A program made the translations under genes and the position numbers. From the NCBI GenBank assembly GCA_046758745.1, contig JBHIAV010000060.1, forward strand, positions 1 through 14,294: a stretch of DNA of 14,294 nt, written 5' to 3'. The notes beneath the pieces were generated by a model, which saw only the letters and a program-made list of their open reading frames with translations, did no database searches and was not told where the DNA came from. This document shows positions 415 to 14,228 of this stretch, piece by piece (the first letter of the stretch is position 1; every line of letters starts with the position of its first letter). Origin of the DNA: Gemmatimonadota bacterium. Its GTDB lineage: Bacteria; Gemmatimonadota; Gemmatimonadetes; Palauibacterales; Palauibacteraceae.

Positions 415-756
415 TTAGTCGAGTGCAGCCAGACCCTCGACCCCGGTCCGGATCTTCGTCACGCCGAGGACGGGATGAACGGAAACGATGCCATCACCCC
501 GCCGCCCTGTCCGGGCCGCCCGGGCGATGATCTCCGTGTACATGCCGCATTGCTCACCTGCGCATATGAAATGCACCATCGCTTTGTCCACGAATTCGGT
601 GCCTTCCTCGAAAGAGATCTTCGCGTACGCGGGATCCACGCCAGACCCGATCGCGTGCACCCACTCGACGCTGAGCCGGGGAACCCCCGACTCCTTCAGG
701 CAGTGCACCACGCGATCGAGCATCTCCGTGCGCACGATGGCACGTATCTCCACCAT
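415..756 (-). CDS. P-II family (GlnB-like) protein, metal-efflux-associated PII type
   Basis: MVEIRAIVRTEMLDRVVHCL...ARAARTGRRGDGIVSVHPV..KIRTG matches the PII N-terminus, B-loop (TGxxGDG) and C-loop (RIRTG). ATG 756 gives 113 aa; an alternative ATG at 792 has a purine-rich RBS. Lies directly downstream of cusA. Confidence 0.88.
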   Translation of the reverse strand: MVEIRAIVRTEMLDRVVHCLKESGVPRLSVEWVHAIGSGVDPAYAKISFEEGTEFVDKAMVHFICAGEQCGMYTEIIARAARTGRRGDGIVSVHPVLGVTKIRTGVEGLAALD

Positions 757-814
757 CGCCTGAGATTCTTCAATCCTCTTGGTCTTCCCCATCCTTCTCT
801 CCCGATTGACCGCG

Positions 815-3800
815 CTAGTCGGCCGGAACGAGCGCCATCTCATCTCGCAAGGCCTCACGGACGGCCTCCTCGGGCCGGCGTCGCACCTGCCACTGGCGCC
901 ACAGGAGGTAGATCGCGGGTATGACGGCCAAGGTGAGCCCGGAACCTGACAACATTCCTCCCACCATCGGCGAGGCGATCCGCTTCATCACATCCGCCCC
1001 GGTTCCGCTGCTCCAGAGGATCGGAGCCAGACCAGCTGTGATCGCCGCGAAGGTCATCACGACCGGCCGAAGCCTGTCCAGAGCGCCCTCGCGCACGGCC
1101 TCGGCCACGTCGGATGCCGTCCGCATCCGGCCTTCTAGGCTCCGGCGGTGGAACGATTCGTCCAGGTAGATCAGCATCACAACGCCCGTCTCCGCGACCA
1201 CGCCGGCCAGGGCGATGAACCCCACCCAGACGGCGACGCTGGTGTTGTAACCCAGCAGCCATAGGAACCACACGCCACCCACCAGCGAGAACGGGAGCGT
1301 GAGCATGACGATGAGAGACTCGAAGACCCCGCGGAAGTTGAAATAGAGCAGCAGAAAGATGATGCCCAGCGTGACGGGCAGGACGATACGCAGCTTCTGC
1401 GTCACCCGCTGCATGAACTCGTACTGTCCGCTCCAGGTTAGGGTGTAGCCGGGCGGCAGGCTCAGCTGCTCGGCGACCACCCGCTTGGCCTCGTCCACGT
1501 AACCACCCACGTCGCGACCTGTGATGTCCACGAACACGATCGTGACGGGAAAGGCATTCTCGGTCTTCACGGCCATCGGCCCCTGGAGAGGCTCGATCCG
1601 CGCCACCTGGCCCAGGGGAATCTGGGCGCCGCTCGGCGCGGGAATAATCACCTCGCGCAGCTTCTCAATGTCGTCGCGAAGCTCGCGGGGGTATCGCACG
1701 TTCACCGCGTAGCGCTCCCGTCCCTCCACGGTGATTGTCGCGTTTATGCCGCCGACCGTGGCCATGATGGCGCTGTGGATATCGCCCACGTTGAGGCCGT
1801 ACCTGGAGGCTTCTTCGCGGTCGATGTTTATGTCGACGTAATAGCCCGACACGCCTCGCTCTGCGAAGACGCTCCGCGTTCCCGGTACCTGCTGCATGAT
1901 CCGTTCGACCTGCTCTCCCAATGCTTGCAGGGTGTCCAGATCGGGACCGAATATCTTGATTCCCACCGGGGTGCGGATACCGGTGGCGAGCATGTCGATG
2001 CGGCCCTTGATCGGCATCGTCCAGGAGTTCGTCACTCCCGGCAACGCCACCTCCCGGTCCATTTCCGCGATCAAGCGCTCGTACGTCATGCCCGGCCGCC
2101 ACTTCTCCTTCCGTTTGAGCGTGATCGTGGTCTCCAACATGTCGAGGGGGGCGGGGTCGGTGGCGGTCCCTGCTCGGCCCGCCTTCCCGAGCACCGTCTC
2201 CACCTCCGGGAAGGAAGCGAGCACGCTGTCCTGGTAGCGCATGATCTCCCTCACCTGCGCGATGGAGACGCCTGGTACCGTCGACGGCATGAAGAGCAGG
2301 GATCCCTCCTTCAGGGGCGGCATGAACTCGCTCCCGAGGCGTTGCCAGGGAAAGACGGTCCCCGCCAGGATGACCCCAGCTGCGGCGATGACCAACCAAG
2401 GCTGCCGCAGCACGAAGTCGATGACCGGACGGTAGGCGCGGCGCAGCGCGCGGTTCACGGGGTTCTGCGCCTCCGGCCGGACCCGCCCCCGCACAAGATA
2501 GCCCATGAGCACCGGAACGAGCGTGATGGCCAGCAGCGCCGATCCCCCCATGGCGAACGTCTTGGTGTACGCCAGGGGCTTGAAGAGACGACCCTCTTGC
2601 TGCTCCAGGGCGAAGACGGGCAGGAAGCTGAACGTGATGATGAGAATGGAGAAGAAGAGCGGGGCCCCCACCTGCTTGGCACTCTCGTACACGATCTCCC
2701 AGCGGGACGTTTCCCCGTCGGCGCGCTCCAGGTGCTTGTGCATGTTCTCGATCATCACGATCGCGCCGGGAATCATGGCGCCGATGGCGATCGCGATCCC
2801 GCCCAGGCTCATGATGTTCGCGCCTACGCCGATCACTCGCATCACGATGAAGGAGATCAGGATGCCGAGCGGAAGCGTGATGATGGCCACCAGCGCCGAG
2901 CGGAAGTGCAGCAGGAAGATCACCGCGACAATCGCGACGATCGAGGACTCCTCGAAGAGCTTGTGCGTCAGGGTTTCAATCGCCTGATCGATCAGGTCGC
3001 CGCGGTCATAGGCTGGCCGCAGCCGGGTTCCGGGCGGGAGACCCTCCTGGATCTCGACCAGCCGCTCCCTGATGGCCTTGATCGTCTTCAGCGCATCGGT
3101 GCCGAAGCGCATCACCACGATACCCGCCACCACCTCGCCCCGCCCGTCGAGGTCGGCCGCGCCGCGCCGGGGCGCCGGCCCGATCTGGACCGTGGCCACG
3201 TCGCCGACTCGGATCGGAGTCCCGTTGGGGGTCGCTCCGACTGCCACGTTCTCGATGTCCTCTATGCCTTTGAAGTATCCGAGACCGCGGATCATGTACT
3301 CGCGCCCGCCCATCTCCAGCACTCGCGCCCCGATGTCGATGTTGTGGGCGCCGATCGCCTGCGCCACGCGGGTTACCGGGATGTTGAAGGCCCGGAGCCG
3401 CTCCGGATTCACTTCGACCTGGTACTGCTTCACGAAGCCACCCAGGCTCGCCACCTCGGAGACGCCGGGGACGGCCGTGAGCTGGTAACGGATGTACCAG
3501 TCCTGGAGCGTGCGCAGTTCCGACAGATCCAGGCTGTCCGACTCCAGCACGTATTCGTAGACCCAGCCGACCCCGGTGGCGTCCGGACCGAGGGTGGGCT
3601 CGACCCCGGGCGGGAGCTGCTGTCGGATGCCGTTCAGATACTCCAGGACGCGGGAGCGGGCCCAGTAGATGTCGGTCCCGTCCTCGAAAATCACATACAC
3701 CAGGCTGAGCCCGAAGAAGGAGTAGCCGCGCACGACACTCGCTCCAGGAACCTTGAGCATCTCCGAGGCGATGGGATACGTGACCTGGTCCTCGACGATG

Positions 3801-3976
3801 TCCGGCGCCTGCTCGCGGAAGTCCGTCTGGACGATGACCTGGACGTCAGAGAGGTCCGGAATCGCGTCGAGGGGAGTGCGGCTGATTGCTATCAAGCCGC
3901 CACCGACCACCGCGACGGTCGCAAGGAGAACGAGGAACCGGTTCTGGAGCGACCAGGCGATGATCCGGTTAATCAT
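815..3976 (-). CDS. cusA: CusA/SilA-type heavy-metal efflux RND permease (Cu(I)/Ag(I) type) with altered proton-relay residues
   Basis: 1053 aa with signatures DAIPDLSDVQVIV, GPDATGVGWVYEY, NIMSLGGIAIAIG, EGRLFKPLAYTKT and GSEFMP. Met triad M563/M613/M662 corresponds to E. coli M573/M623/M672. ATGA overlap with cusB at 3973-3976. Confidence 0.97.
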   Translation of the reverse strand: MINRIIAWSLQNRFLVLLATVAVVGGGLIAISRTPLDAIPDLSDVQVIVQTDFREQAPDIVEDQVTYPIASEMLKVPGASVVRGYSFFGLSLVYVIFEDGTDIYWARSRVLEYLNGIRQQLPPGVEPTLGPDATGVGWVYEYVLESDSLDLSELRTLQDWYIRYQLTAVPGVSEVASLGGFVKQYQVEVNPERLRAFNIPVTRVAQAIGAHNIDIGARVLEMGGREYMIRGLGYFKGIEDIENVAVGATPNGTPIRVGDVATVQIGPAPRRGAADLDGRGEVVAGIVVMRFGTDALKTIKAIRERLVEIQEGLPPGTRLRPAYDRGDLIDQAIETLTHKLFEESSIVAIVAVIFLLHFRSALVAIITLPLGILISFIVMRVIGVGANIMSLGGIAIAIGAMIPGAIVMIENMHKHLERADGETSRWEIVYESAKQVGAPLFFSILIITFSFLPVFALEQQEGRLFKPLAYTKTFAMGGSALLAITLVPVLMGYLVRGRVRPEAQNPVNRALRRAYRPVIDFVLRQPWLVIAAAGVILAGTVFPWQRLGSEFMPPLKEGSLLFMPSTVPGVSIAQVREIMRYQDSVLASFPEVETVLGKAGRAGTATDPAPLDMLETTITLKRKEKWRPGMTYERLIAEMDREVALPGVTNSWTMPIKGRIDMLATGIRTPVGIKIFGPDLDTLQALGEQVERIMQQVPGTRSVFAERGVSGYYVDINIDREEASRYGLNVGDIHSAIMATVGGINATITVEGRERYAVNVRYPRELRDDIEKLREVIIPAPSGAQIPLGQVARIEPLQGPMAVKTENAFPVTIVFVDITGRDVGGYVDEAKRVVAEQLSLPPGYTLTWSGQYEFMQRVTQKLRIVLPVTLGIIFLLLYFNFRGVFESLIVMLTLPFSLVGGVWFLWLLGYNTSVAVWVGFIALAGVVAETGVVMLIYLDESFHRRSLEGRMRTASDVAEAVREGALDRLRPVVMTFAAITAGLAPILWSSGTGADVMKRIASPMVGGMLSGSGLTLAVIPAIYLLWRQWQVRRRPEEAVREALRDEMALVPAD

Positions 3977-5226
3977 CGTCGGGCTCCCCCCGAACTGGTG
4001 TCCCGCGCCGAGGGTCGGTCCTCCGAATCCCCGGCGGAGCCGCTGCCCACGTGCTGCATCCCCACCATCTCGCCACCCGTTCCGGCCAGCCGGGACTCGG
4101 CGTCGACCAGGAAGTTGGCGGAGGCCACGATCGTCTCCCCCTCGGACACTCCTTGGAGGATGTGTACGCGGCCTCCCGCGCGGGACCCGAGGACGACCTC
4201 CCGGGGAACCAACATGCCCTCCTCGTCTCGGAGAAAGACCACGTTCCGCTCACCGGTCACGACGACGGCCTCGAGGGGAACCGTCACTCCATCGGCGATC
4301 GCCTGCACGTCGAAGAAGACTGTCGCGAACATTCCCGGCTTCAACCGCAGATCCGGATTCGGCACGCTGACGCGCACCCGGTTCGTCCGGCTCTTCACGT
4401 CGACGGTCGGGTACACGAAGCTCACGGTTCCCATCACGTGCTCGCCCGGATACGCAGCCAACTCGATGTGGGACCGGGATCCTTCCCGCACGAACTGCAG
4501 ATCCTGCTCGAACAGCTCGCCCTCGACCCAGACCATCGAGAGGTCCGCGATCCGGTACAGACGCATCCCGGGCATCACACGCTGGCCCTCCCACACGTCC
4601 TTCTCCAGGACGATGCCGCTCGCCGGCGCGACCAGGGTGAGCGTCTTCATCACCTCCCCGGTGCTCTCCAGTCGATCGATCTGCTCGGAGGTGATATCCC
4701 AGTATCTCAGTCGGCGCCGGGCCGCTTCGAGCATGTCTCCGGCGCTAGCCCAGGCCTCGCCCGCCGTCGGATCAACTTGCGAGACGAGACGCTTGGCGGT
4801 GAGTAGCTCCTCCTGGGCGGCTACGAGCATGGGGCTGTACAGGGAGAGGAGCGGCTGTCCCTTCCCCACGGTCTCCCCGGTGGTATTCACATACAGCCGC
4901 TCCACGAATCCGCTGATCTTAAGGGTGACATCGGAGACATCGGGTTCCGGTGCCACGACAAAACCGACCGTGCGAATCGTCCGCATGAGGGTCTCGCGGC
5001 GGGCCGTCGTGTAGATCACACCGAGCGCTTGCTCCTGCGCGGGGGTGAGGTGCACGGGCCGGCGGATCGCCGCCCCCGTGCTGTCCATCGCCCCCTGCGT
5101 GCCACCGGCCTGCATCCGGGCATGTTCCTCGGCCGTCATGCCGAGCGTGTCTGAACTTCCTTCGTCCGGTCCGCAGGCCACGAGGAGAACCGCAGTCAGC
5201 AGCAGGGCGGCCGCTCGCACCTTCAT
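3973..5226 (-). CDS. cusB: CusB-type RND periplasmic adaptor (membrane fusion protein), lipoprotein
   Basis: 417 aa with lipobox LVAC (Cys18), YSPMLVAAQEE hairpin, IADLSMVWVEG, LKPGMFATV and ANFLVDAESRL. Met/His-rich termini. ATGA overlaps with both neighbours. Confidence 0.95.
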   Translation of the reverse strand: MKVRAAALLLTAVLLVACGPDEGSSDTLGMTAEEHARMQAGGTQGAMDSTGAAIRRPVHLTPAQEQALGVIYTTARRETLMRTIRTVGFVVAPEPDVSDVTLKISGFVERLYVNTTGETVGKGQPLLSLYSPMLVAAQEELLTAKRLVSQVDPTAGEAWASAGDMLEAARRRLRYWDITSEQIDRLESTGEVMKTLTLVAPASGIVLEKDVWEGQRVMPGMRLYRIADLSMVWVEGELFEQDLQFVREGSRSHIELAAYPGEHVMGTVSFVYPTVDVKSRTNRVRVSVPNPDLRLKPGMFATVFFDVQAIADGVTVPLEAVVVTGERNVVFLRDEEGMLVPREVVLGSRAGGRVHILQGVSEGETIVASANFLVDAESRLAGTGGEMVGMQHVGSGSAGDSEDRPSARDTSSGGARR

Positions 5227-6530
5227 CTGACACCTCCCGGGTCGGCGCCGACAAGCGCCTCCACCTGCGCAAGAGCGCGCTGGTAGTCGGCGGCGAGGCG
5301 CACGCGATCGATCTCGTATCGGTTCACAGTCATCTCGTTCTGTACCAGCGTCATGAAATCCACCCTCCCAACCCGGTAGGCAGAGAGCGCCGATTCTACG
5401 GCAGCCCGAGCCTGTGGCAGCACCGAGGTCGCGTAGAGTTGCGTGAGGTTCCGGGCTCGTTCCGCCTCTGCCCTGAGCTCGGTGATCCGCGCGTAGGTCT
5501 CGTTATAGAGGTCGATTTCCCTGGCCTCCTCCATGCTCAGCGTGGCGCTCATCTGACGGCGAAGCGGGAGCTGGCGTGAGCCTGCCCACACTGGAATGCT
5601 GACCCCCAGCATCAGGGTGAGGAAGTCATCGAACTGCGGACGCTGTCCATAGCCGAGGGTGACCGTGAGATCGGGATAGAGGGCTCGTCGAGCCGCCTTG
5701 TAGCCGGCTTCCGCCGCCTGCGCCCGCGCTCGGGCGGCGCGCAGGGCGGGACGCCGCCGGGCGGCCAGGGCCATCAGCGAGTCCACCGGCGGCAGGTCGC
5801 CCGCCGGCACCGGCAGTTCGAGGGCTCCGACCGGCGCGGTGGCCTGGCGGCCGAGAAGCGCGTTGAGTCGGGCGGCCATCGCCAGGCGATCCTGCTCCAT
5901 CACGGTGATCTCCTCGGTCATCTGGGCGACCGACACCTGGGCCTGGAGAACATCCTGCTGAAGGCCAGTCCCCACGCTGTACATGGTAGAGGACACATCG
6001 AGGAATTCGCGTAGCAGCTGCCGCGTGTCCTCCAGGATCCCGAGGGCGCGGTCCACGTAGGCCAGCCCGTAATAGACGGACTTGACGCCGGCGACGAGCG
6101 ATACCCCGGACTCCTCCGCCTCCAGCTCCGCCGCCTGGGCGAGGTACCGTGCCCGCTCCTCGGCGAACCCCAGCTTGCCCGGCCACGGGAAGCGCTGCGT
6201 GAGCTGCACGCTGTTCATCGTCATGGATTGGTCGGTCCTCCCCAGGTCCACGACCGGCCGATTCAGGAAACCGAAGGAGAGCTGCGGGTCGGGGAGCGCG
6301 CCGGCCTGGGGAATTCGCTCAATCGCAGCGTCCGCGCGAAGGCGGACCGCCTGCAAGAGCGGATTCGCCTCCCGAGCGAGCGCGACTGCATCCTCGAGGG
6401 TGAGGGTGTCTGCAGCCTGCTGGGCGAACGTCGGGCGCGAGAAGGCCAGGAGCGCCGTCGCGAGAGGAGGCATGCACACCCACCTCATCGGTAGCCCACT
6501 AATCGCTGGTGTGGCAAGATGATTCCCCAT
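5223..6530 (-). CDS. TolC-family outer membrane efflux protein (CusC role)
   Basis: Signal peptide ending TFA-QQ, LTLEDAVALAREANP, LPDPQLSFG, QRFPWPGK, YPDLTV and AYRVGRVDFMTLV (two OEP repeats). First gene of a C-B-A operon. Start uncertain (ATG 6530 or 6488). Confidence 0.93.
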   Translation of the reverse strand: MGNHLATPAISGLPMRWVCMPPLATALLAFSRPTFAQQAADTLTLEDAVALAREANPLLQAVRLRADAAIERIPQAGALPDPQLSFGFLNRPVVDLGRTDQSMTMNSVQLTQRFPWPGKLGFAEERARYLAQAAELEAEESGVSLVAGVKSVYYGLAYVDRALGILEDTRQLLREFLDVSSTMYSVGTGLQQDVLQAQVSVAQMTEEITVMEQDRLAMAARLNALLGRQATAPVGALELPVPAGDLPPVDSLMALAARRRPALRAARARAQAAEAGYKAARRALYPDLTVTLGYGQRPQFDDFLTLMLGVSIPVWAGSRQLPLRRQMSATLSMEEAREIDLYNETYARITELRAEAERARNLTQLYATSVLPQARAAVESALSAYRVGRVDFMTLVQNEMTVNRYEIDRVRLAADYQRALAQVEALVGADPGGVR

Positions 6531-6880: not shown

Positions 6881-7738
6881 TCAGTTGATGCGCGGGTTCG
6901 GGTACGACGGCACCGTGACGAGGCCCGGAATCCCGAACACCCGGGAGAAGCCGACAATGAGTTCGACGTTGCCTCGCCCCCGCTCCCACTCGTCGAGCCG
7001 CGTGGCAAGCCCGAAATCGAGTACGCTCAGGTTCGTCAGCTGCCAGCGGGACCCCAGCTCCAGCCAGACGCGGCTGCGGCCTGAACCGTTCGGCACCTCG
7101 GCGTAGATGTCCCCCATGATCGCCCTGCTGAACAGGCCGATCGGATAGTCGAACGCCATGCCCCCCAGCCAGAAGTCGCCGCCGTCGGCCGCGCTCGCTG
7201 CCGCGTAGCCGCCGTTCAGGTGGATGCGAAGGCGCCCGAAGGACCGGGTCGCGAGGCCCTTCCCCGAGATCGCCCAATTCTCCCTTCCGAGTCTCCCGGC
7301 TCCCGGACTCTCCACATCCAAACGCGCGGCGAACGCAGGCCAGCTCCAGGTCTCGCGGTTGAAGTTGTACAGGAGGTGCGCGCCAGCGCTCTCGATCCCC
7401 CCTGCCGTGCTTCCCTCGGCGTCCTCCCCTCCGGCCTTGATCTCCAAGCCTACCTGCCCGTTCAGGAAGAGCCCCGTCTTCAGCTCACCGATCCCGGACA
7501 CGCCGTCTCCACCCTCTCGGAGCGCACCCCGAATCCCCAACTCGACCTCCCACTCCCGGAACTTCACGGGGTACGCGTCCTCGACCTGAATCGGCCGGTC
7601 GAGGTCGGCCGAACGGAAGTCTTCCTGTGCGGTGACCGGTGATACGGATCCGGCGATCGCAGCAAGGCCAGCCGCCACCGGTCCGAGCAGGCCCGCCCGA
7701 AAAGGTCCGGCAGACGCCGAGGCGATTCGATTCTTCAC
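6881..7738 (-). CDS. Putative outer-membrane beta-barrel (porin/transporter-like) protein
   Basis: 285 aa with signal peptide (..VTA-QED) and many alternating amphipathic strands (WEVELGIRG, HLLYNFN, LRIHLNGGY, WLGGMAFDYP, WLELGSRWQL, LDFGLATRL, LIVGFSRVF). GTGA overlap with the upstream gene at 7735-7738. Confidence 0.75.
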   Translation of the reverse strand: MKNRIASASAGPFRAGLLGPVAAGLAAIAGSVSPVTAQEDFRSADLDRPIQVEDAYPVKFREWEVELGIRGALREGGDGVSGIGELKTGLFLNGQVGLEIKAGGEDAEGSTAGGIESAGAHLLYNFNRETWSWPAFAARLDVESPGAGRLGRENWAISGKGLATRSFGRLRIHLNGGYAAASAADGGDFWLGGMAFDYPIGLFSRAIMGDIYAEVPNGSGRSRVWLELGSRWQLTNLSVLDFGLATRLDEWERGRGNVELIVGFSRVFGIPGLVTVPSYPNPRIN

Positions 7739-8865
7739 CGATCCATCCCTTCGTGCCGGGGGTGTGCGGGCACGCTGTCGGTCGGCAGCTTCTCCAGCCG
7801 GACACCCAGCGGCATCCTGAACTCCTCCATCGTGGCCAAGCGCGCGTCGGGATGACCCTGCGGGAGCCAGCTTCCGTCGGGCAGTCGCGTGGGGACACGC
7901 ATGGACCCCTCGCTCATGCTGTGTCCGGTCATCGGCATGCCGGGCGCGGTCACGGCGTCCTGAGCCGCGTAGGTCATGTTCCGACGCATCCTCTCGATCT
8001 CCGCCTCCTTCTCGGCCCGCGAGAGCGAGGCGTCGGCCATGATGTCGTTCACCACGTCATGCATCATGTGGAGGTTGTCGAAGATCTGGGCCGCGGCCGG
8101 CAACATGCGCGAGAAGCGAGGGGCCATCTCGGCCGCCAGGGGCATCACCTTCGGCGGATTCCTCAGCACCGAGTCCTTGAAGACGGCGATGACCCGATTA
8201 AGCTCCTGCCGTCGAGCCTCCGGATCGGGCTCCATGAGCGCCTCGTAGACCGCCGCGTGATGCCAGTGGTACGCCCACAGGATGCCATTGATGCCGGGGT
8301 ATTTCTTGCGAAAGGTGCCGGCCCAGGCGCCGCCTCCCTCCATCCAGCGGTGACCGTATCCGCGCGTGGAAAACGCGGTGTTGGCGCGCGACAGGTAGTA
8401 CGCGATCGCGCGCTCGCCGGCAGTCTTCTTATCCCTCACTCGATCGTCTGTGAGGATGTCGTAGAGCTGGGAGTGGAGCATGTGGGTCCAGTCCATGGCG
8501 CGCCCGGTCTCGAACGCCATCTTCGACCAGTTGGGCGCGATAACCTCGGCGGGTGGCTCGAAGCGCGGCGGATGGTCCAGGTACTCCACGACACGCGCGC
8601 GGAACGTCTCCATCTCCGCCACCGCGTCCTCTCCGCGATTCAAGAGGGTCTCGTACGCTCCGAAGTGCGCGTAATGTGCCGCGTAGAAGGACCGCGCCGC
8701 CTCGTTGTAGGTATCGTAGAACGCGAAGTTGTAGGCGGCGGGAAGCCGGTAGACCTCGTTCCGCTGCGGCGCGCTGCTGCAGGCAGAGAGAAACAGCGCG
8801 GCTCCCAGAAGCGTCACGCGATCAGCGCGGGCCGGGATCACATCCCGGAAAGTCATCTTCTCCAT
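7735..8865 (-). CDS. Uncharacterised His/Met-rich lipoprotein with four HxxH helical repeats; putative metal-binding protein
   Basis: 376 aa with lipobox LSAC (Cys29). HxxH at 64/67, 128/131, 200/203 and 266/269, plus a Met/His-rich tail (GMPMTGHSMSEGSM, HPRHEGM). Translationally coupled to the barrel gene. Confidence 0.85.
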   Translation of the reverse strand: MEKMTFRDVIPARADRVTLLGAALFLSACSSAPQRNEVYRLPAAYNFAFYDTYNEAARSFYAAHYAHFGAYETLLNRGEDAVAEMETFRARVVEYLDHPPRFEPPAEVIAPNWSKMAFETGRAMDWTHMLHSQLYDILTDDRVRDKKTAGERAIAYYLSRANTAFSTRGYGHRWMEGGGAWAGTFRKKYPGINGILWAYHWHHAAVYEALMEPDPEARRQELNRVIAVFKDSVLRNPPKVMPLAAEMAPRFSRMLPAAAQIFDNLHMMHDVVNDIMADASLSRAEKEAEIERMRRNMTYAAQDAVTAPGMPMTGHSMSEGSMRVPTRLPDGSWLPQGHPDARLATMEEFRMPLGVRLEKLPTDSVPAHPRHEGMDR

Positions 8866-8894
8866 ACCGAACCCCTGTCCTACCAGCCGGTCCT

Positions 8895-8939
8895 TCTCTC
8901 TCTCACTCTCTCTCTCTCTCTCTCTCTCTCACTCACTCA
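8895..8939. repeat. (TC/GA)n dinucleotide microsatellite
   Basis: (TC)5-AC-(TC)12-ACTCACTCA on the + strand, filling most of the 71-nt gap between two co-oriented genes and abutting the upstream TGA. Confidence 0.97.
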
Positions 8940-9494
8940 GACGTCTCGACTTCCCAGCGGAAGCAAGCCCAAGCCAAGTCCTCCGGCCAGACCCACCAGG
9001 AGGCCGATCACGCCCCATTCGGCGGCACTCCGGTTGCGTTCGATTCGGATGTCGTCCGCCCGGACCCCTCCATCGCCCACGTCATGGCGGTACGAAGCCC
9101 AACTCTCCGTGGCCAGCTTGTGTTCGTTCTCATCGACGCTCCTGCGGGCCCCCAGCACAGTCAGGTCCAGCGTGGCTACCGCGTCCCCATCGGCGGCAAT
9201 TGCCGTCACCCGGTAGGCTCCAGAGGTGACGCCTAGCGGAATGATCAGTTCGAGCGAGAACCTGCCCGCGGAATCTGACTGCACCTGCCGGAGCTCGTAC
9301 TCGCGCAGCGCCCCCACGAGCCTTAGAAGGTAAGTTTGCTTCTTGCTGAAGTCGCTGCCGTGGAGCTCCAGTACCTCACCCGCCACGACGGACGACTGCG
9401 GGCTCGTCAAGACCGCATCCTCGTGCGAGACGGCCCGCCCTGCCGATGCGAGCAAGAAGCTCAGAAACAGCGTGAGGACCTTTGCCACATTCAT
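8937..9494 (-). CDS. Secreted Ig-like-domain protein with C-terminal membrane anchor and probable mature N-terminal His
   Basis: 185 aa, AAAGGA RBS. Signal peptide ends AVS|HED. Beta-strand-rich core (VVAGEVLELHGSDF, SDSAGRFSLELIIP, GAYRVTAIA) and C-terminal TM WGVIGLLVGLAGGLGLGLL. Starts 18 nt after the cyt b stop. Confidence 0.8.
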   Translation of the reverse strand: MNVAKVLTLFLSFLLASAGRAVSHEDAVLTSPQSSVVAGEVLELHGSDFSKKQTYLLRLVGALREYELRQVQSDSAGRFSLELIIPLGVTSGAYRVTAIAADGDAVATLDLTVLGARRSVDENEHKLATESWASYRHDVGDGGVRADDIRIERNRSAAEWGVIGLLVGLAGGLGLGLLPLGSRDV

Positions 9495-9512: not shown

Positions 9513-10553
9513 CTACATGCCAAGATGCTGCTGGCGCGCACCAAACGCCCCGTACAGCCAGAGGGCGAGGACCGCGAGCCCGAGCAGGAGCCCCACCCAC
9601 CCCACCCAGCCGTGCCTTCCAGGCCTATCGTCGCCCCCGCGATCCAGGAGCGGGATGGTTGCGAGAAAGCCGAAGAGGATGGCGGGTCCGATAATCATGC
9701 CCCAGGTGCCCAGGAGGTTCTCGAGTCCGTAGACCCAGAGCACCGGCCAGAACGGCTTGGTGACCTCCACACCGGCAACGGCCGGATAGCCCAAGTTTTC
9801 GGGTGCAACGACCGCCAGGAGCCCTATGGTCGCGAAGGCGAGCGATGCGACGCCCGCAAGCCGTATGGCATGTGTCCGAAAGACGCTAGTCTCCGAAGCA
9901 TCGGCGTGAATACCCAGATGGCGGATAAGCCAGAAGTGAAGTCCCATGAGGCCGATGAGAGCGAGCGGCAGGAGGCTCGTGTGAAGGCTGAAGATCCGCG
10001 AGAGCAACGAGGTGCTCCGCGTGAAGCTCTCGGTGAAGAAGGCACCCAGCGCGCCCGTGAGCTCGCCTCCTGTCACGAAATGCGACAGCGCCTCGAATCC
10101 TTCCTGGTCGTTACGCAGTGCTGTGCCAGTCACGATGAGGAGGAAGAGTAGCCCGGCCATTCCGACGCCGGCCCACCAGGTAACCTCACGCGGCTTCTTG
10201 TAGGAGCGTCGCCAAAACACGTAGATGAGGTGTGTCGTGATGGTCACGGTCACCGCGCCCGCGGACCAATAGTGGAGGCTCCGCACCCAGTCCCCGAGCG
10301 GCGCACGAGCGATGATATACAGGACGCTGTCGTGGGCTCCGATCGGGTTTGGATTGTAGAACTGCGCGAGGTAGATGCCGGTGAGCAGAAGGAGAATAAT
10401 GAAGAATGCGGTCAGCCCTCCCAACATGTACGTCCAGCGGTTGGTCACTTTCGGGATGGGATAGTCGAGCGCCTTGAGCGCTGCTCGCTCCGCTAGCCAG
10501 CTGGCGTACGAATCGCTCTCGCCTGCCTCGTCAGCCACGTTCACCCCCGACAT
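9513..10553 (-). CDS. Cytochrome b of the bc1/b6f family (b6 + subunit IV-like fusion, ~7 TM), orphan
   Basis: 346 aa with YMLGG, TGIYLAQFYNP, RSLH94..H108, YKKPREVTWWAG and H191..H206 (four heme ligands, 13/14 spacing). KPFWP sits at the PEWY position. No Rieske or CxxCH protein in the window. Confidence 0.92.
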   Translation of the reverse strand: MSGVNVADEAGESDSYASWLAERAALKALDYPIPKVTNRWTYMLGGLTAFFIILLLLTGIYLAQFYNPNPIGAHDSVLYIIARAPLGDWVRSLHYWSAGAVTVTITTHLIYVFWRRSYKKPREVTWWAGVGMAGLLFLLIVTGTALRNDQEGFEALSHFVTGGELTGALGAFFTESFTRSTSLLSRIFSLHTSLLPLALIGLMGLHFWLIRHLGIHADASETSVFRTHAIRLAGVASLAFATIGLLAVVAPENLGYPAVAGVEVTKPFWPVLWVYGLENLLGTWGMIIGPAILFGFLATIPLLDRGGDDRPGRHGWVGWVGLLLGLAVLALWLYGAFGARQQHLGM

Positions 10554-10635: not shown

Positions 10636-10772
10636 CGCCCTGGAAACCGAAGGAGAGGGTTCTTAGCGGGGCCTCATCGCCTATTTTGGGATCGCAGCGA
10701 GGCAAGATTTTCACCTCCAGAGGACCGGGGAGGAGGATCGATCCGTCCCCCTTTCCGGCTCGGCGTAGGGCC

Positions 10773-11456
10773 ATGAAGATACTTCTCGTCGAAGATGACG
10801 CTCGGGTGGCCCGCTTCATCGAGAAAGGACTGCGGGAGGAGGGTCATGTGGTTGACCTGGCTACCGACGGCGTTGAAGCCGTGGCGCTCGCGCACGTGAC
10901 CGACTACGACGTGATCGTGCTCGACGTGATGCTCCCCGGCAAGAGCGGCTTTCACGTGACCTCCGAGCTTCGCTCCCAAGGCAACCCCACCCCGATCCTC
11001 ATGCTGACGGCCCGGGATTCCCGGGAGGACATCGTGCAGGGCCTCGACGTCGGGGCTGACGACTATCTGACTAAGCCGTTCGACTTCGAGGAGCTGCTAG
11101 CGCGCATCCGCGCGCTCGCCCGGCGCATTGGCGCTATCGACGAGGGCACGCTCCGCTTCCAGGACATCGAGTTGGATCGACTCCAGCACGAAGCGCGGCG
11201 CGGCGGCCAGCGCATCAACCTCACGCCGACCGAGTTCAAACTCCTCGAGGCCCTGATGCGCAAGCCTGGACAGGTGGTGAAGCGCCTCGAGCTCTTGGAT
11301 CGCGTGTGGGGGATGAGCTTCGATCCGGGCACGAACCTGATCGATGTGCACATGGCGAACCTTCGGAAGAAGCTGGAGAAGGAGGGGGGGAGCCGGGTTA
11401 TCTCCACTGTCCGCGGTGTCGGATTCCGGCTGGCGAGCGTAGAAGGCCATGAGTAA
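10773..11456 (+). CDS. OmpR-family response regulator (CusR/CzcR-like)
   Basis: MKILLVEDD..YDVIVLDVMLP..PILMLTAR..GADDYLTKPF receiver domain and LTPTEF..IDVHMANLRKKL..TVRGVGF winged helix. ATG 10773 (227 aa) is preferred over the ORF-track start at 10686. Confidence 0.96.
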   Translation: MKILLVEDDARVARFIEKGLREEGHVVDLATDGVEAVALAHVTDYDVIVLDVMLPGKSGFHVTSELRSQGNPTPILMLTARDSREDIVQGLDVGADDYLTKPFDFEELLARIRALARRIGAIDEGTLRFQDIELDRLQHEARRGGQRINLTPTEFKLLEALMRKPGQVVKRLELLDRVWGMSFDPGTNLIDVHMANLRKKLEKEGGSRVISTVRGVGFRLASVEGHE

Positions 11457-12921
11457 GCTCGGTCGTTCCTTTCGGGGGCGCCTTGCCCTCCGCTTCGGAG
11501 CCACCGTCATGCTGGTCGCCGCCGCAGGCTCCCTCTTCGGTTACCTGGTACTGCGCAGTCTGCTAATCGACCAGCTCGACAGGACGCTTCTGCGTTTGGC
11601 AGGGATCGAGGCAGCTGCCGCCGCCGACACTCCGGACTCCACAGTACATTTCCACGACGAGGTCTTCCTCGCTGTCGGCCCCGGACACAAGGCGATCCTG
11701 AGCCGTTACGCGGAGGTGTGGAGCCTGGAGGGAGAACCGGTCCTGCGAACCGAGAACCTGGCAGGCGGCAATCTTCCGCTCGACGGGGAGGTTCGAAGCC
11801 GCGTCGTCTCTACCGGTGACCCGGAGCTCTTCAGCTTCGAGTGGGGGGGCACCGAATACCGGAGCGTTCTCTACCCCCTGGGTCTGGTGGGTCCGCAGCA
11901 TGAGCCGCATCTGCTTCAGGTGGCCGCTGCCACCGACCAGACAAGGGCTGTGCTCGGCAATTTCTTGAAGGTGTTGGCCGTGCTTGCGTTCCTGGGGGCT
12001 CTGGCGGGTCTAGGATTGGGATGGTGGGTGGCCGGATCCGCCATCCGGCCGGTGATGGAGATCACTCGGCAGGCGGAATCCCTCGAGATGTCGCGGGGCA
12101 AGCACCGGATCATTGCGCAGGCAGAGACCGAGGAGATGAGCCGACTCGTTTCCGTTCTGAACTCCATGCTGGGAAGGATCGATACCGCATTCGAAAGTCA
12201 GCGACGCTTCCTCGCCGATGTCGGACACGAAATCCGCACGCCCCTCACCGTGCTTCGCGGAGATGTCGAGGTTGCCCTCCGCCGGCATCGCTCACTGGAA
12301 GAGTACGAGGCGATCCTGGGACAGACGTTGGAGGATCTCAAGGATGTCTCAGCTCTGGCCGATGACCTCATCACCCTGGCCCGCGGAGAGAGTGGCGCCC
12401 TGACCCCCGAGTTTCGCCCCATCCAAGCGGAGAACCTGCTCCGCGAGGTCGCCGAACGGTACCAGGGAGCCGCCGAGAAAGGGGGAGCCTGCCTCAAGAT
12501 TGGAAGCGACCCATCGGCCGTGGTCGTGGGGGACCGTACGCTGCTCGCGCGGGCCTTGGGCAACCTTGTGGACAACGCCATCAAATACGGAGGCGACGGA
12601 GAGATCACCGTTGGAGCCAGCTTGGCGGACCATGGCAGCGTCGAGATCCGCGTGGCAGATGAGGGCCCCGGAGTCCTGCCAGATGAGCTGCCGCACCTCT
12701 TCGACCGCTTTGTCCGCGGGGAAGCGGGCCGGCGGGTTGGGAGAGGCTCCGGGCTCGGCCTATCAATCGTCAAGGCGATCGTGGAGAGCCATGGCGGAAC
12801 GATCCAAGTGGATAGCGTCGTCGGCCGCGGAACGACTTTTCGGCTCCACCTACCTGCCGTGGCTCACAGGCAAATCCGATCGCGGAAGGTCGATGTCGTG
12901 GGGACCCACTCCGGAGATTAG
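11449..12921 (+). CDS. Sensor histidine kinase (2 TM, periplasmic sensor, HAMP, HisKA, HATPase), heavy-metal-sensor type
   Basis: 490 aa with H-box FLADVGHEIRTPL, N-box NLVDNAIKY, G1 DEGPG, F-box LFDRF and G2 GSGLGL. 8-nt overlap with the regulator. Confidence 0.96.
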   Translation: MSKLGRSFRGRLALRFGATVMLVAAAGSLFGYLVLRSLLIDQLDRTLLRLAGIEAAAAADTPDSTVHFHDEVFLAVGPGHKAILSRYAEVWSLEGEPVLRTENLAGGNLPLDGEVRSRVVSTGDPELFSFEWGGTEYRSVLYPLGLVGPQHEPHLLQVAAATDQTRAVLGNFLKVLAVLAFLGALAGLGLGWWVAGSAIRPVMEITRQAESLEMSRGKHRIIAQAETEEMSRLVSVLNSMLGRIDTAFESQRRFLADVGHEIRTPLTVLRGDVEVALRRHRSLEEYEAILGQTLEDLKDVSALADDLITLARGESGALTPEFRPIQAENLLREVAERYQGAAEKGGACLKIGSDPSAVVVGDRTLLARALGNLVDNAIKYGGDGEITVGASLADHGSVEIRVADEGPGVLPDELPHLFDRFVRGEAGRRVGRGSGLGLSIVKAIVESHGGTIQVDSVVGRGTTFRLHLPAVAHRQIRSRKVDVVGTHSGD

Positions 12922-13619: not shown

Positions 13620-14105
13620 TTAGTGCTCCCGTTCCGATGCCGCGTCGGCCGCCGCACAGAGACGTGTGCAGACATCTCGCAGAGAATGCTGCCATTCACC
13701 CCGCAGGGAGACACCCAGCTCCACACGTCCGGTGGGAATCGCGATTCGGCAATGCGTCACGTGCGGGAGGTCGAGCAGCTCCCTTCTCAGCGCCTCGAGA
13801 CGTCCGGAAGAGCCGACGAGCCAGGTCGTCACGCGCGCCTCGGCCATATGCACCGAATAGCCGCGACGCTCGAGGATCCGTATAACCTCTTCCAACCACG
13901 GTAGGGCGTCGACCTCGATCGACACCGTGTCTCGCATGGGATTGACCGCCGCCCCTCGCACCCCATCCAGCTTCCTCAGAGTCCGCTCGAGCGGTGCTCC
14001 CTCCGACGCACAGCCAAGCTCCGAGATCGTGAGGCAGACTCGGAAGCCGGACGCGCCGGCCACGGCGTACGGCGTTTGCTCTTCAGGGGAACCGGTTTCG
14101 CTCAT
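13620..14105 (-). CDS. Protein with two degenerate HMA (ferredoxin-like) domains
   Basis: GGAGG RBS before ATG 14105. LTISELGCASEGAPLERTLRKLDGVRGAAVNP..GYSV is an HMA domain with CxxE instead of CxxC. The second repeat (LRRELLDLPHVTHCRIAIPTGRVEL) lacks the CxxC loop. Confidence 0.72.
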   Translation of the reverse strand: MSETGSPEEQTPYAVAGASGFRVCLTISELGCASEGAPLERTLRKLDGVRGAAVNPMRDTVSIEVDALPWLEEVIRILERRGYSVHMAEARVTTWLVGSSGRLEALRRELLDLPHVTHCRIAIPTGRVELGVSLRGEWQHSLRDVCTRLCAAADAASEREH

Positions 14106-14228
14106 GCTTCCTCCGGCGCCGGATCCCGCCGACCTGCGATGGGCCTCGTCGCCTCCGGGCAGGTCGCTCTCCGTCCGAAGCACCAGGATCGCCCGTCCCA
14201 GCAGTGCAGCGCTCCTCCCGTGGAACTA

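Follow-up and report, generated by a model that had tools for sequence, protein, structure and literature searches.

A CusA-type metal pump of a Gemmatimonadota bacterium with proline at the site of the central proton-relay aspartate, and its recurrence in other lineages

Introduction

CusA of Escherichia coli, the pump protein of the CusCFBA system (PDB 3k07, 3t51 and 7kf5), is the best solved relative of the protein considered here, a CusA-like permease of the heavy-metal efflux (HME) group of resistance-nodulation-division (RND) pumps. The gene lies on a contig of 14,294 nucleotides from a Gemmatimonadota bacterium (JBHIAV010000060.1 of assembly GCA_046758745.1), analysed over its whole length and hereafter called the window, and its product carries proline where E. 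coli CusA has D405, the aspartate of transmembrane helix 4 (TM4). This aspartate is treated as the universal, indispensable residue of the RND proton relay, and a proton-sweeping role is ascribed to K984 of TM11 in E. coli CusA. As stated in PMC8092243, T987 is the hydrogen-bond partner of D405. The divalent-cation pumps CzcA, ZneA, CzrA and NczA resemble the window protein in having Val at the K984 site, and hence a non-Lys relay (Table 1 of PMC3637150). Unlike it, they keep the central TM4 Asp (D408 in CzcA) together with a second one (DFG-DGA-VEN) and, as far as PMC3637150 describes them, are without the copper methionines. No natural CusA-type pump without the TM4 Asp was found in a literature search that left supplements and subscription journals outside its scope.

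We report here that the replacement of Asp by Pro is real, recurs in unrelated lineages, is kept by selection and is accompanied by recurrent changes in the neighbouring helices.

Results

The window permease and its TM4 site

The gene and the codons on which the comparison turns are the following.

815..3976, minus strand: cusA-like HME-RND permease gene (P0001, 1053 aa; TIGR00914 CusA/CzcA, Pfam ACR_tran)
2768..2770, minus strand: Pro403 (codon CCC), the TM4 residue aligned with D405 of E. coli CusA (from translation, phmmer alignment and unitig cover)
2765..2773, minus strand: Ile402-Pro403-Gly404; among 166 close relatives with Asp, 165 have Val as residue 402
1061..1063, minus strand: Val972 (codon GTC), the TM11 residue aligned with K984 of E. 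coli CusA, Val being usual in the clade
1190..1192, minus strand: Glu929 of TM10, equivalent to E. coli E939, the mid-membrane carboxylate that is left, present in every tabulated non-Asp form
2747..2749, minus strand: Glu410, equivalent to E. coli E412, in the IEN motif that lies at TM4's cytoplasmic end; the same in 372 of 372 aligned sequences

The protein matches TIGR00914 with 1149.2 bits (cut-off 701.45), residues 1-1036 being covered, and Pfam ACR_tran with 774.7 bits. Its phmmer alignment to E. coli CusA (3t51/3k07) is full-length and gap-poor and scores 1107 bits over query residues 1-1027, against 550 bits for ZneA; such an alignment would fit the twelve TM helices, two large periplasmic loops and trimeric build that mark HME-RND permeases. 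TM4 reads GAM-I402-P403-G404-AIVMIEN and TM11 reads RLRP-V972-VMT, helix positions here and below being read from the sequence and standard RND topology. The phmmer alignment confirms what a preliminary description, made from the letters of the window, had read at these two sites, i.e., D405 replaced by Pro403 (CCC, 2770-2768) and K984 by Val972 (GTC, 1063-1061); its full-length, coupled open reading frame was likewise found, with 1053 aa and overlaps of 4 nt.

Two methionine features of the Cu(I)/Ag(I)-specific CusA subgroup (HME4) are common to the window protein and E. coli CusA: the periplasmic triad with its glutamate (M563/M613/M662 and E615, for M573/M623/M672 and E625 in E. coli) and the TM pairs, three in number (M389-M997, M401-M476 and M408-M491, for M391-M1009, M403-M486 and M410-M501). 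Equivalents of E939, E412, K482 (K472) and T987 are present as well. E410 and N411 of the (V/I)EN motif and the invariant TM11 arginine R970 are present, and the operon comprises a CusB-type adaptor and an outer membrane factor (OMF). Unlike E. coli CusA, it has Pro at D405, Val at K984, P269/N745 for the periplasmic pair M271/M755, and D939-E940 where the E. coli protein has R949-H950. The earlier statement that the Cu(I) methionines are kept therefore holds for the triad and the TM pairs and fails for the M271/M755 pair. Judged by its sequence, the window protein is a CusA-type HME-RND member failing one feature regarded as defining.

Asp-form CusA proteins of other Gemmatimonadota (e.g., P0006, L018, L019) share with it 79-85% identity, length, operon, Val at the Lys site, D939-E940 and, in some loci, a PII-like gene. 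They differ in having Val402-Asp403, Leu444, Ala927, Val976 and mostly Glu967.

Cover of the Pro403 codon

In sequencing run X1, a possible source sample whose cover was read from Logan contigs and not from raw reads, an 81-nt unitig (2736-2816) spans the CCC codon with no differences at a depth of 13.1; the codon lies 32 nt from one end of it and 46 nt from the other, and the neighbouring unitigs have depths of 7.8 and 11.7. CCC is present in the k-mers of X1 and is therefore no invention of the assembler, in line with the earlier opinion that it is not a read error. The assembly graph forks on both sides of the codon, where diverged contigs of other organisms join at 2772-2779 and carry GTC, that is GAC (Asp) on the coding strand.

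Two possible origins of the base changes were considered and rejected. By eye, no repeat is perfected by the Pro form, as a quasi-palindrome or template-switch origin of clustered changes would have it; avoidance of the restriction site GTCGAC, the Val-Asp coding of many relatives, was dropped because it is powerless to explain a non-synonymous change.

Conservation at the Asp and Lys sites

Conservation was assessed in a family set of 150 representatives and in a close set of 172 full-length relatives with 79-85% identity. The TM4 Asp occurs in 149/149 family representatives with a residue at the site, and no other relay position was free of variation in this set of 150. Among the 39 columns with at least 95% conservation across the family, the Asp column has six deviants in the 172 close relatives and each of the other 38 has none or one.

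The Lys site behaves otherwise. It holds Val in 126 and Lys in 45 of the 172 close relatives (120 and 45 among the Asp-bearing ones), Lys in 55 and Val in 44 of the 150 family representatives, and Lys in 54 of the 89 representatives that have the Met triad; it is Ile or Val in 120/120 CusA proteins of Woeseiaceae type and Val or Ile in 75/77 CusA loci of marine gammaproteobacterial type. Val at this site also fits the table of PMC3637150 for CzrA and NczA. Lys and Val were seen scattered over the tree of the 172 relatives, which therefore implies many switches or recombination. Judged from these alignments, Val972 is ordinary and the loss of Asp exceptional. The preliminary description had taken the change of Lys to Val for the loss of a co-evolved partner; such a co-loss is unsupported because Val is the clade norm, and what stands is the weaker statement that each loss of Asp seen was on a background without Lys.

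The E939 site varies among family representatives (E, Q, L, D or S), some of which have the Asp alone, combining Q or L for E939 with V for K984, so that single-carboxylate relays of the opposite kind, with Asp only, occur naturally as far as sequence comparison can tell. Two lineages of the Gemmatimonadota clade of the window (P0182 and P0025/P0026/P0029) keep the TM4 Asp, and their residue at the E939 site is Gln; a Pro form, P0113, is sister to P0182 at 91% identity. The TM4 Asp and the carboxylate of the E939 site appear to be lost alternately, their joint loss having never been seen.

Recurrence of the Asp loss

The first relative search gave six non-Asp forms: Pro in the window protein, P0012 and P0113, Ala in P0034, Thr in P0072 and Gly in P0095. 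Two relative searches together yielded 181 parsed sequences (175 Asp, 3 Pro, 1 Ala, 1 Thr, 1 Gly), while eleven further relatives were left unparsed by the TM4 pattern. P0034 and P0072 form a sister pair in which M-V-A-T-V and M-V-T-T-V replace M-V-D-A-A; the GATMPM of P0095 has the look of a stretch that is in error or has shifted locally.

Scans with the pattern of the Pro form added the genome of P0012, a metagenome-assembled genome (MAG) labelled Alphaproteobacteria and three metagenome contigs. The relatives of these and other Pro forms have Asp: 119/119 for L013, 76/77 parsed for L014, the remaining one belonging to L014's own lineage at 96% identity, and the nearest relatives, at 83% identity, of the Pro form of a Geopsychrobacter MAG. 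Parsimony on a tree of 372 sequences places Asp at the root and requires at least eight changes, five of them to Pro, and later scans added two more Pro lineages outside these five. A codon scan meant to be less biased, made in 185,579 species genomes with a fixed TM4 motif and covering one genome per species and all codons at the site other than GAN, found 8 Pro, 1 Asn and 1 Ala: nine genomes (8 Pro, 1 Asn) came from the part for codons not starting with G, and one (Ala) from the part for G followed by a second base other than A. The Asn form reads MMNAA (L131, a Chloroflexia MAG). The Ala form reads MIAGA (L137/L139) and occurs in a Nitrospinaceae MAG (G070) whose genome also has L142, a CusA-type protein with both Asp and Lys.

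Seven Pro lineages are distinguished: (1) the window with G009, (2) P0113, (3) L013, (4) a clade reading MLPGA, (5) L016, (6) L134 and (7) L135. They span Gemmatimonadota, Proteobacteria and the one Geopsychrobacter MAG, and we judge them to be independent of each other, the independence of the L016 and L134 lineages being read from distance alone (at most 72% identity to any sequence compared). Four species-level genomes and two metagenome contigs make up the MLPGA clade; its members are 93-98% identical, the truncated L012 standing at 88%. Several Pro lineages and one multi-species Pro clade are on record; whether such a clade exists had been asked in the preliminary description. A Pro codon is two base changes away from GAY, and the Pro-heavy spectrum is therefore unlike random damage.

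Other Pro loci are cusCBA operons adjoining a gene for a DUF411 protein or a P-type ATPase. The records or runs of several Pro forms bear labels suggestive of hydrothermal, subseafloor or low-oxygen marine sites, and a link of the Pro forms to habitat is possible from these labels.

Selection on the Pro forms

Pro forms are under normal purifying selection, another point that had been raised at the outset, with ratios of non-synonymous to synonymous divergence (dN/dS) of 0.05-0.11. The window gene compared with the Pro-form gene of G009 gave 0.112 at dS 0.92, where Asp-Asp pairs of similar depth gave 0.094-0.152; within the MLPGA clade the values were 0.072 at dS 1.06 (426 codons) and 0.046 at dS 0.40 (1045 codons). 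The Pro codons themselves differ synonymously, being CCC or CCG among MLPGA members, CCC in the window and CCG in G009. No stop or frameshift was met in any Pro form examined, and a single CusA-type gene was found in each of G000 (the window's genome), G001/G009, G002, G067, G068 and G069.

The proteins of the window and G009 are sisters in the full-length tree (support 0.996) and in a masked tree (0.987), and have in common I444, V927, F976 and D967 at otherwise near-invariant sites. A single origin of their Pro would mean long persistence, two origins a convergence at several sites. G009 was also considered as the sister genome of G000 and not retained, since SecA was star-like within the family (G009 76%, top genomes 77%); as to other markers of their kinship, rpoB was missing from G009 and gyrB was not found in G000.

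Changes accompanying the loss of Asp

The changes that accompany the loss of Asp fall in TM4, TM5, TM10 and TM11. Beyond residues 402 and 403, the window protein shows them at the following codons.

2645..2647, minus strand: Ile444 (TM5), Leu in 362 of 362 Asp forms
1196..1198, minus strand: Val927 (TM10), Ala in 166 of 166 Asp-form close relatives, a change common to the G009 Pro form
1049..1051, minus strand: Phe976 (TM11), Val in 165 of 165 Asp-form close relatives with the residue, a change common to the G009 Pro form
1076..1078, minus strand: Asp967, one turn before the invariant Arg970, Glu in 134 of 166 Asp forms
1157..1162, minus strand: Asp939-Glu940, where TM10 ends on the cytoplasmic side; 939 or 940 is acidic in all seven Pro lineages in which this region is readable

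Residue 444 is altered in lineages 1, 2 and 7 and there in Pro forms alone (I, I, V or M), and Thr975 (E. coli T987) deviates in Pro forms only, to Ser in P0113 and to Ala in L014 and L047. These two patterns are the stronger ones because both sites are otherwise invariant. Residue 967 is non-Glu in all six non-Asp forms of the window's clade, and Glu967 has changed to Asp or Gly in five Asp-less lineages; the Asp forms within the Gemmatimonadota set divide at this position into 134 with E, 26 with D and 6 with G. Next to the Asp site, Val402 has given way to Ile in the window, to Met in L016 and to Thr in L140, and the residue after the site is Gly in five of the seven Pro lineages, including L013, whose relatives have Ala in 119/119. 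At the end of TM10, the Asp forms of two proteobacterial sets have N939 in 191/196 and mostly Q940, D939 occurring in 2/196; the three Pro lineages within these sets show N939D, N939D and Q940E.

Around these changes the rest of the path is constant. In the ten tabulated non-Asp sequences E929, E410, N411, K472, R968 and R970 are unchanged, and the Met triad, E615 and the six TM methionines are intact. For the Pro forms, E929, E410, K472, R970 and the copper methionines are retained in the seven lineages whose sequence is full-length.

Operon, PII-like gene and genome

The other genes of the window are as follows.

5223..6530, minus strand: OMF gene P0003 (Pfam OEP, 145 bits)
3973..5226, minus strand: cusB-like periplasmic adaptor gene P0002 (Pfam HlyD_D23, 254 bits; NCBIfam CzcB/CusB subfamily matches)
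415..792, minus strand: PII-like gene, 22 nt past the cusA stop, with its likely start ATG at 792, preceded by GGGAGAGAAGG
9513-10553, minus strand: cytochrome b gene
10686-11456, plus strand: OmpR-type response regulator (Pfam Response_reg and Trans_reg_C)
11449-12921, plus strand: histidine kinase (Pfam HisKA and HATPase_c)
13620-14183, minus strand: HMA-domain protein gene

The minus-strand operon runs in the order OMF, cusB, cusA and PII-like gene and is translationally coupled: the cusA frame is full length and overlaps cusB by 4 nt (3973-3976), as cusB does the OMF gene. No cusF was seen in the window, a difference from E. coli Cus, as is the PII-like gene after cusA. The OmpR-type regulator and kinase pair (10686..12921) is likely the regulator of this island, although only its position suggests control of the operon. 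Two large open reading frames, 7639-9216 on the plus strand and 7735-8865 on the minus strand, had no Pfam match.

PII-like genes beside HME-RND pumps are already known, as PMC7726332 recounts with reference to Sant'Anna et al. 2009, and the PII-NG genes of czcCBA operons are, like the one of the window, small PII-fold genes adjoining such a pump. In the account of PMC7726332, PII-NG is proteobacterial and stands beside czc-type pumps, unlike the gene of the window, which follows a cus-type pump in Gemmatimonadota. The window's PII-like protein scores 36.5 bits against Pfam P-II (cut-off 25) and 34 and 29 bits against the GlnB and GlnK equivalogs (cut-offs 202 and 181), so that by profile scores and position, not by phylogeny, it has the marks of PII-NG: a PII fold, no GlnB/GlnK identity and an adjoining HME-RND gene. 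Such a gene directly follows cusA also in L010 (5274-5639), L018, L019 and L024, which are related Gemmatimonadota loci with Pro- and Asp-form pumps; it was absent within 1.5 kb in other Gemmatimonadota loci and from the proteobacterial Pro loci. The suggestion that PII is tied to the Pro form is contradicted by its place after Asp-form cusA genes (L018, L019, L024) and its absence from the proteobacterial Pro loci.

The genome to which the window belongs (G000) has 3.08 Mb and is 87% complete, and the runs holding the stretch are labelled hydrothermal vent metagenomes. It was seen to encode a second HME-RND pump (L002, on C28) with 38% identity and the canonical TM4 Asp (MMVDGGVVMVEN), and three copper-type P1B ATPase genes above the family cut-off (C28, C42, C8).

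Discussion

A proposed working exporter with a rewired relay

The window pump would, with a probability that we put at roughly one half, be a working CusCBA-type exporter of Cu(I)/Ag(I) whose proton relay has been naturally rewired. The residues of the proton path and the copper methionines are unchanged in ten non-Asp forms, and continued coupled export therefore fits better than its abandonment. In such a pump Glu929, on TM10, the pseudo-symmetric helix, would be the sole mid-membrane proton site and Lys472 may act at the relay's periplasmic side. Protons would leave through a cytoplasmic cluster of Glu410/Asn411 in TM4, Asp939/Glu940 where TM10 ends and Asp967/Arg968/Arg970 where TM11 begins, and the Pro-Gly pair could serve as a hinge of TM4, replacing the electrostatic switch that couples this helix to the methionine channel.

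A number of points weigh against this reading. Proline is unable to bind a proton. A point mutation of D405 stops metal transport by E. coli CusA, as stated in PMC8092243 with citation of its reference 13, and replacing the central acidic residues abolishes activity in the RND pumps studied, according to the review PMC8277102. A contig of run X3 (record 22), from another sample, is 99.65% identical to the window over 2774-3637 (3 differences in 864 nt), and its next 48 nt encode a diverged TM4 of the Asp form (V-D-S-A-I-V-M-V-E-N); the contig may be either chimeric or from a recombinant close strain. The tree of the periplasmic domains only fails to recover the pair of window and G009, and long persistence is therefore not rested on that pair alone; the genomic markers are undecided as well, and the duration of the Pro state in the window's lineage is therefore uncertain. 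The window protein deviates at 9 near-invariant columns, where equally isolated Asp forms deviate at 1-42 (median 5), so that some relaxation of this CusA, at the high end and inside the range, may have taken place.

The acid at 939/940 is also a post hoc signal, and an acid is present there in 56/89 of the Met-triad representatives; 72 of 572 control pairs, moreover, share at least one identical parallel change. As a family-level signal the acid was discarded, its base rate being too common, and only the gains within clades therefore count, which are suggestive of co-adaptation.

Alternative explanations

A pump uncoupled from the proton gradient and kept as a periplasmic Cu(I) acceptor independent of the proton motive force, as a scaffold for CusB and the OMF or as a gated conduit is a possibility that we hold doubtful. 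It would accommodate the loss of a residue whose mutation halts transport in E. coli (PMC8092243), the retention of all copper-binding methionines of the triad and the helices, and a purifying selection strong enough to tell that the protein matters; non-functional relay mutants of MtrD, furthermore, still assemble with their partners (PMC8277102, in its section 6.3.3). An uncoupled protein would, nonetheless, lose constraint on its proton path, and the finding that E929, K472, E410, N411, R968 and R970 are unchanged, even across a dS of about 1 in the MLPGA clade, therefore counts against it. The changes that did occur cluster round the relay (444, 927, 967, 975, 976 and 939/940), which looks like repair rather than abandonment, and the gene is the sole CusA-type copy in the six genomes checked. 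Apart from its PII element, this is the reading of the preliminary description, which had favoured a conduit or importer uncoupled from the proton motive force; with proton path and methionines unchanged in the ten non-Asp forms, nothing was found in its favour.

It is unlikely, though conceivable, that the Pro(-Gly) forms make up a distinct mechanistic class of RND pumps that has abandoned the carboxylate switch of TM4 for a single TM10 Glu or an altered driving of the cycle. In one version the single TM10 glutamate would do all the proton work. In bolder ones an unwound Pro-Gly TM4 might alter what drives the cycle, e.g., through another coupling ion or stoichiometry, or metal might pass the TM methionine channel without one proton per cycle at the site. 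If such a class were real, the same two-step change would have been reached repeatedly as an advantageous one in these habitats.

Still a little less probable is an allele that has lost its function and, being neutral or slightly deleterious, drifts in lineages able to do without the pump. In G000 such dispensability would find room in three copper-type P1B ATPase genes and in another HME-RND pump, one that has the Asp; other erosions of the relay occur in the Gemmatimonadota clade (D to A or T, D to G in a garbled stretch, E929Q in two lineages), and in their deviations at near-invariant columns the non-Asp forms are among the highest. This last excess was tried as a sign of decay and rejected, being not significant and no outlier when set against equally isolated Asp forms. 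The examined Pro forms, moreover, have no stop or frameshift and show the dN/dS of Asp forms (0.05-0.11) over dS 0.4-1.06, and random inactivation would neither pick the same two-step change from Asp to Pro in seven lineages nor strike the otherwise invariant Leu444 three times.

An artefact of sequencing, assembly or binning, such as a chimeric join in the conserved TM4 stretch, has a footing in the branching of the graph on both flanks, in the foreign contigs that join at 2772-2779 and in the X3 contig that changes at 2774 from 99.65% identity to a diverged Asp form, and is nevertheless very improbable in view of the 81-nt unitig that crosses the codon at a depth of 13.1 without differences and of Pro at the same site, with differing flanking codons, in independent assemblies of other studies.

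Significance

The natural Pro series is a ready-made experiment on how proton flow and transport are coupled in RND pumps. It could show which residues take over when the TM4 carboxylate is missing, whether TM10 replaces TM4, and what roles fall to positions 444, 967, 975 and 939/940. It also calls for caution with metal-resistance genes from metagenomes, which should not be scored as dead or alive from single catalytic residues.

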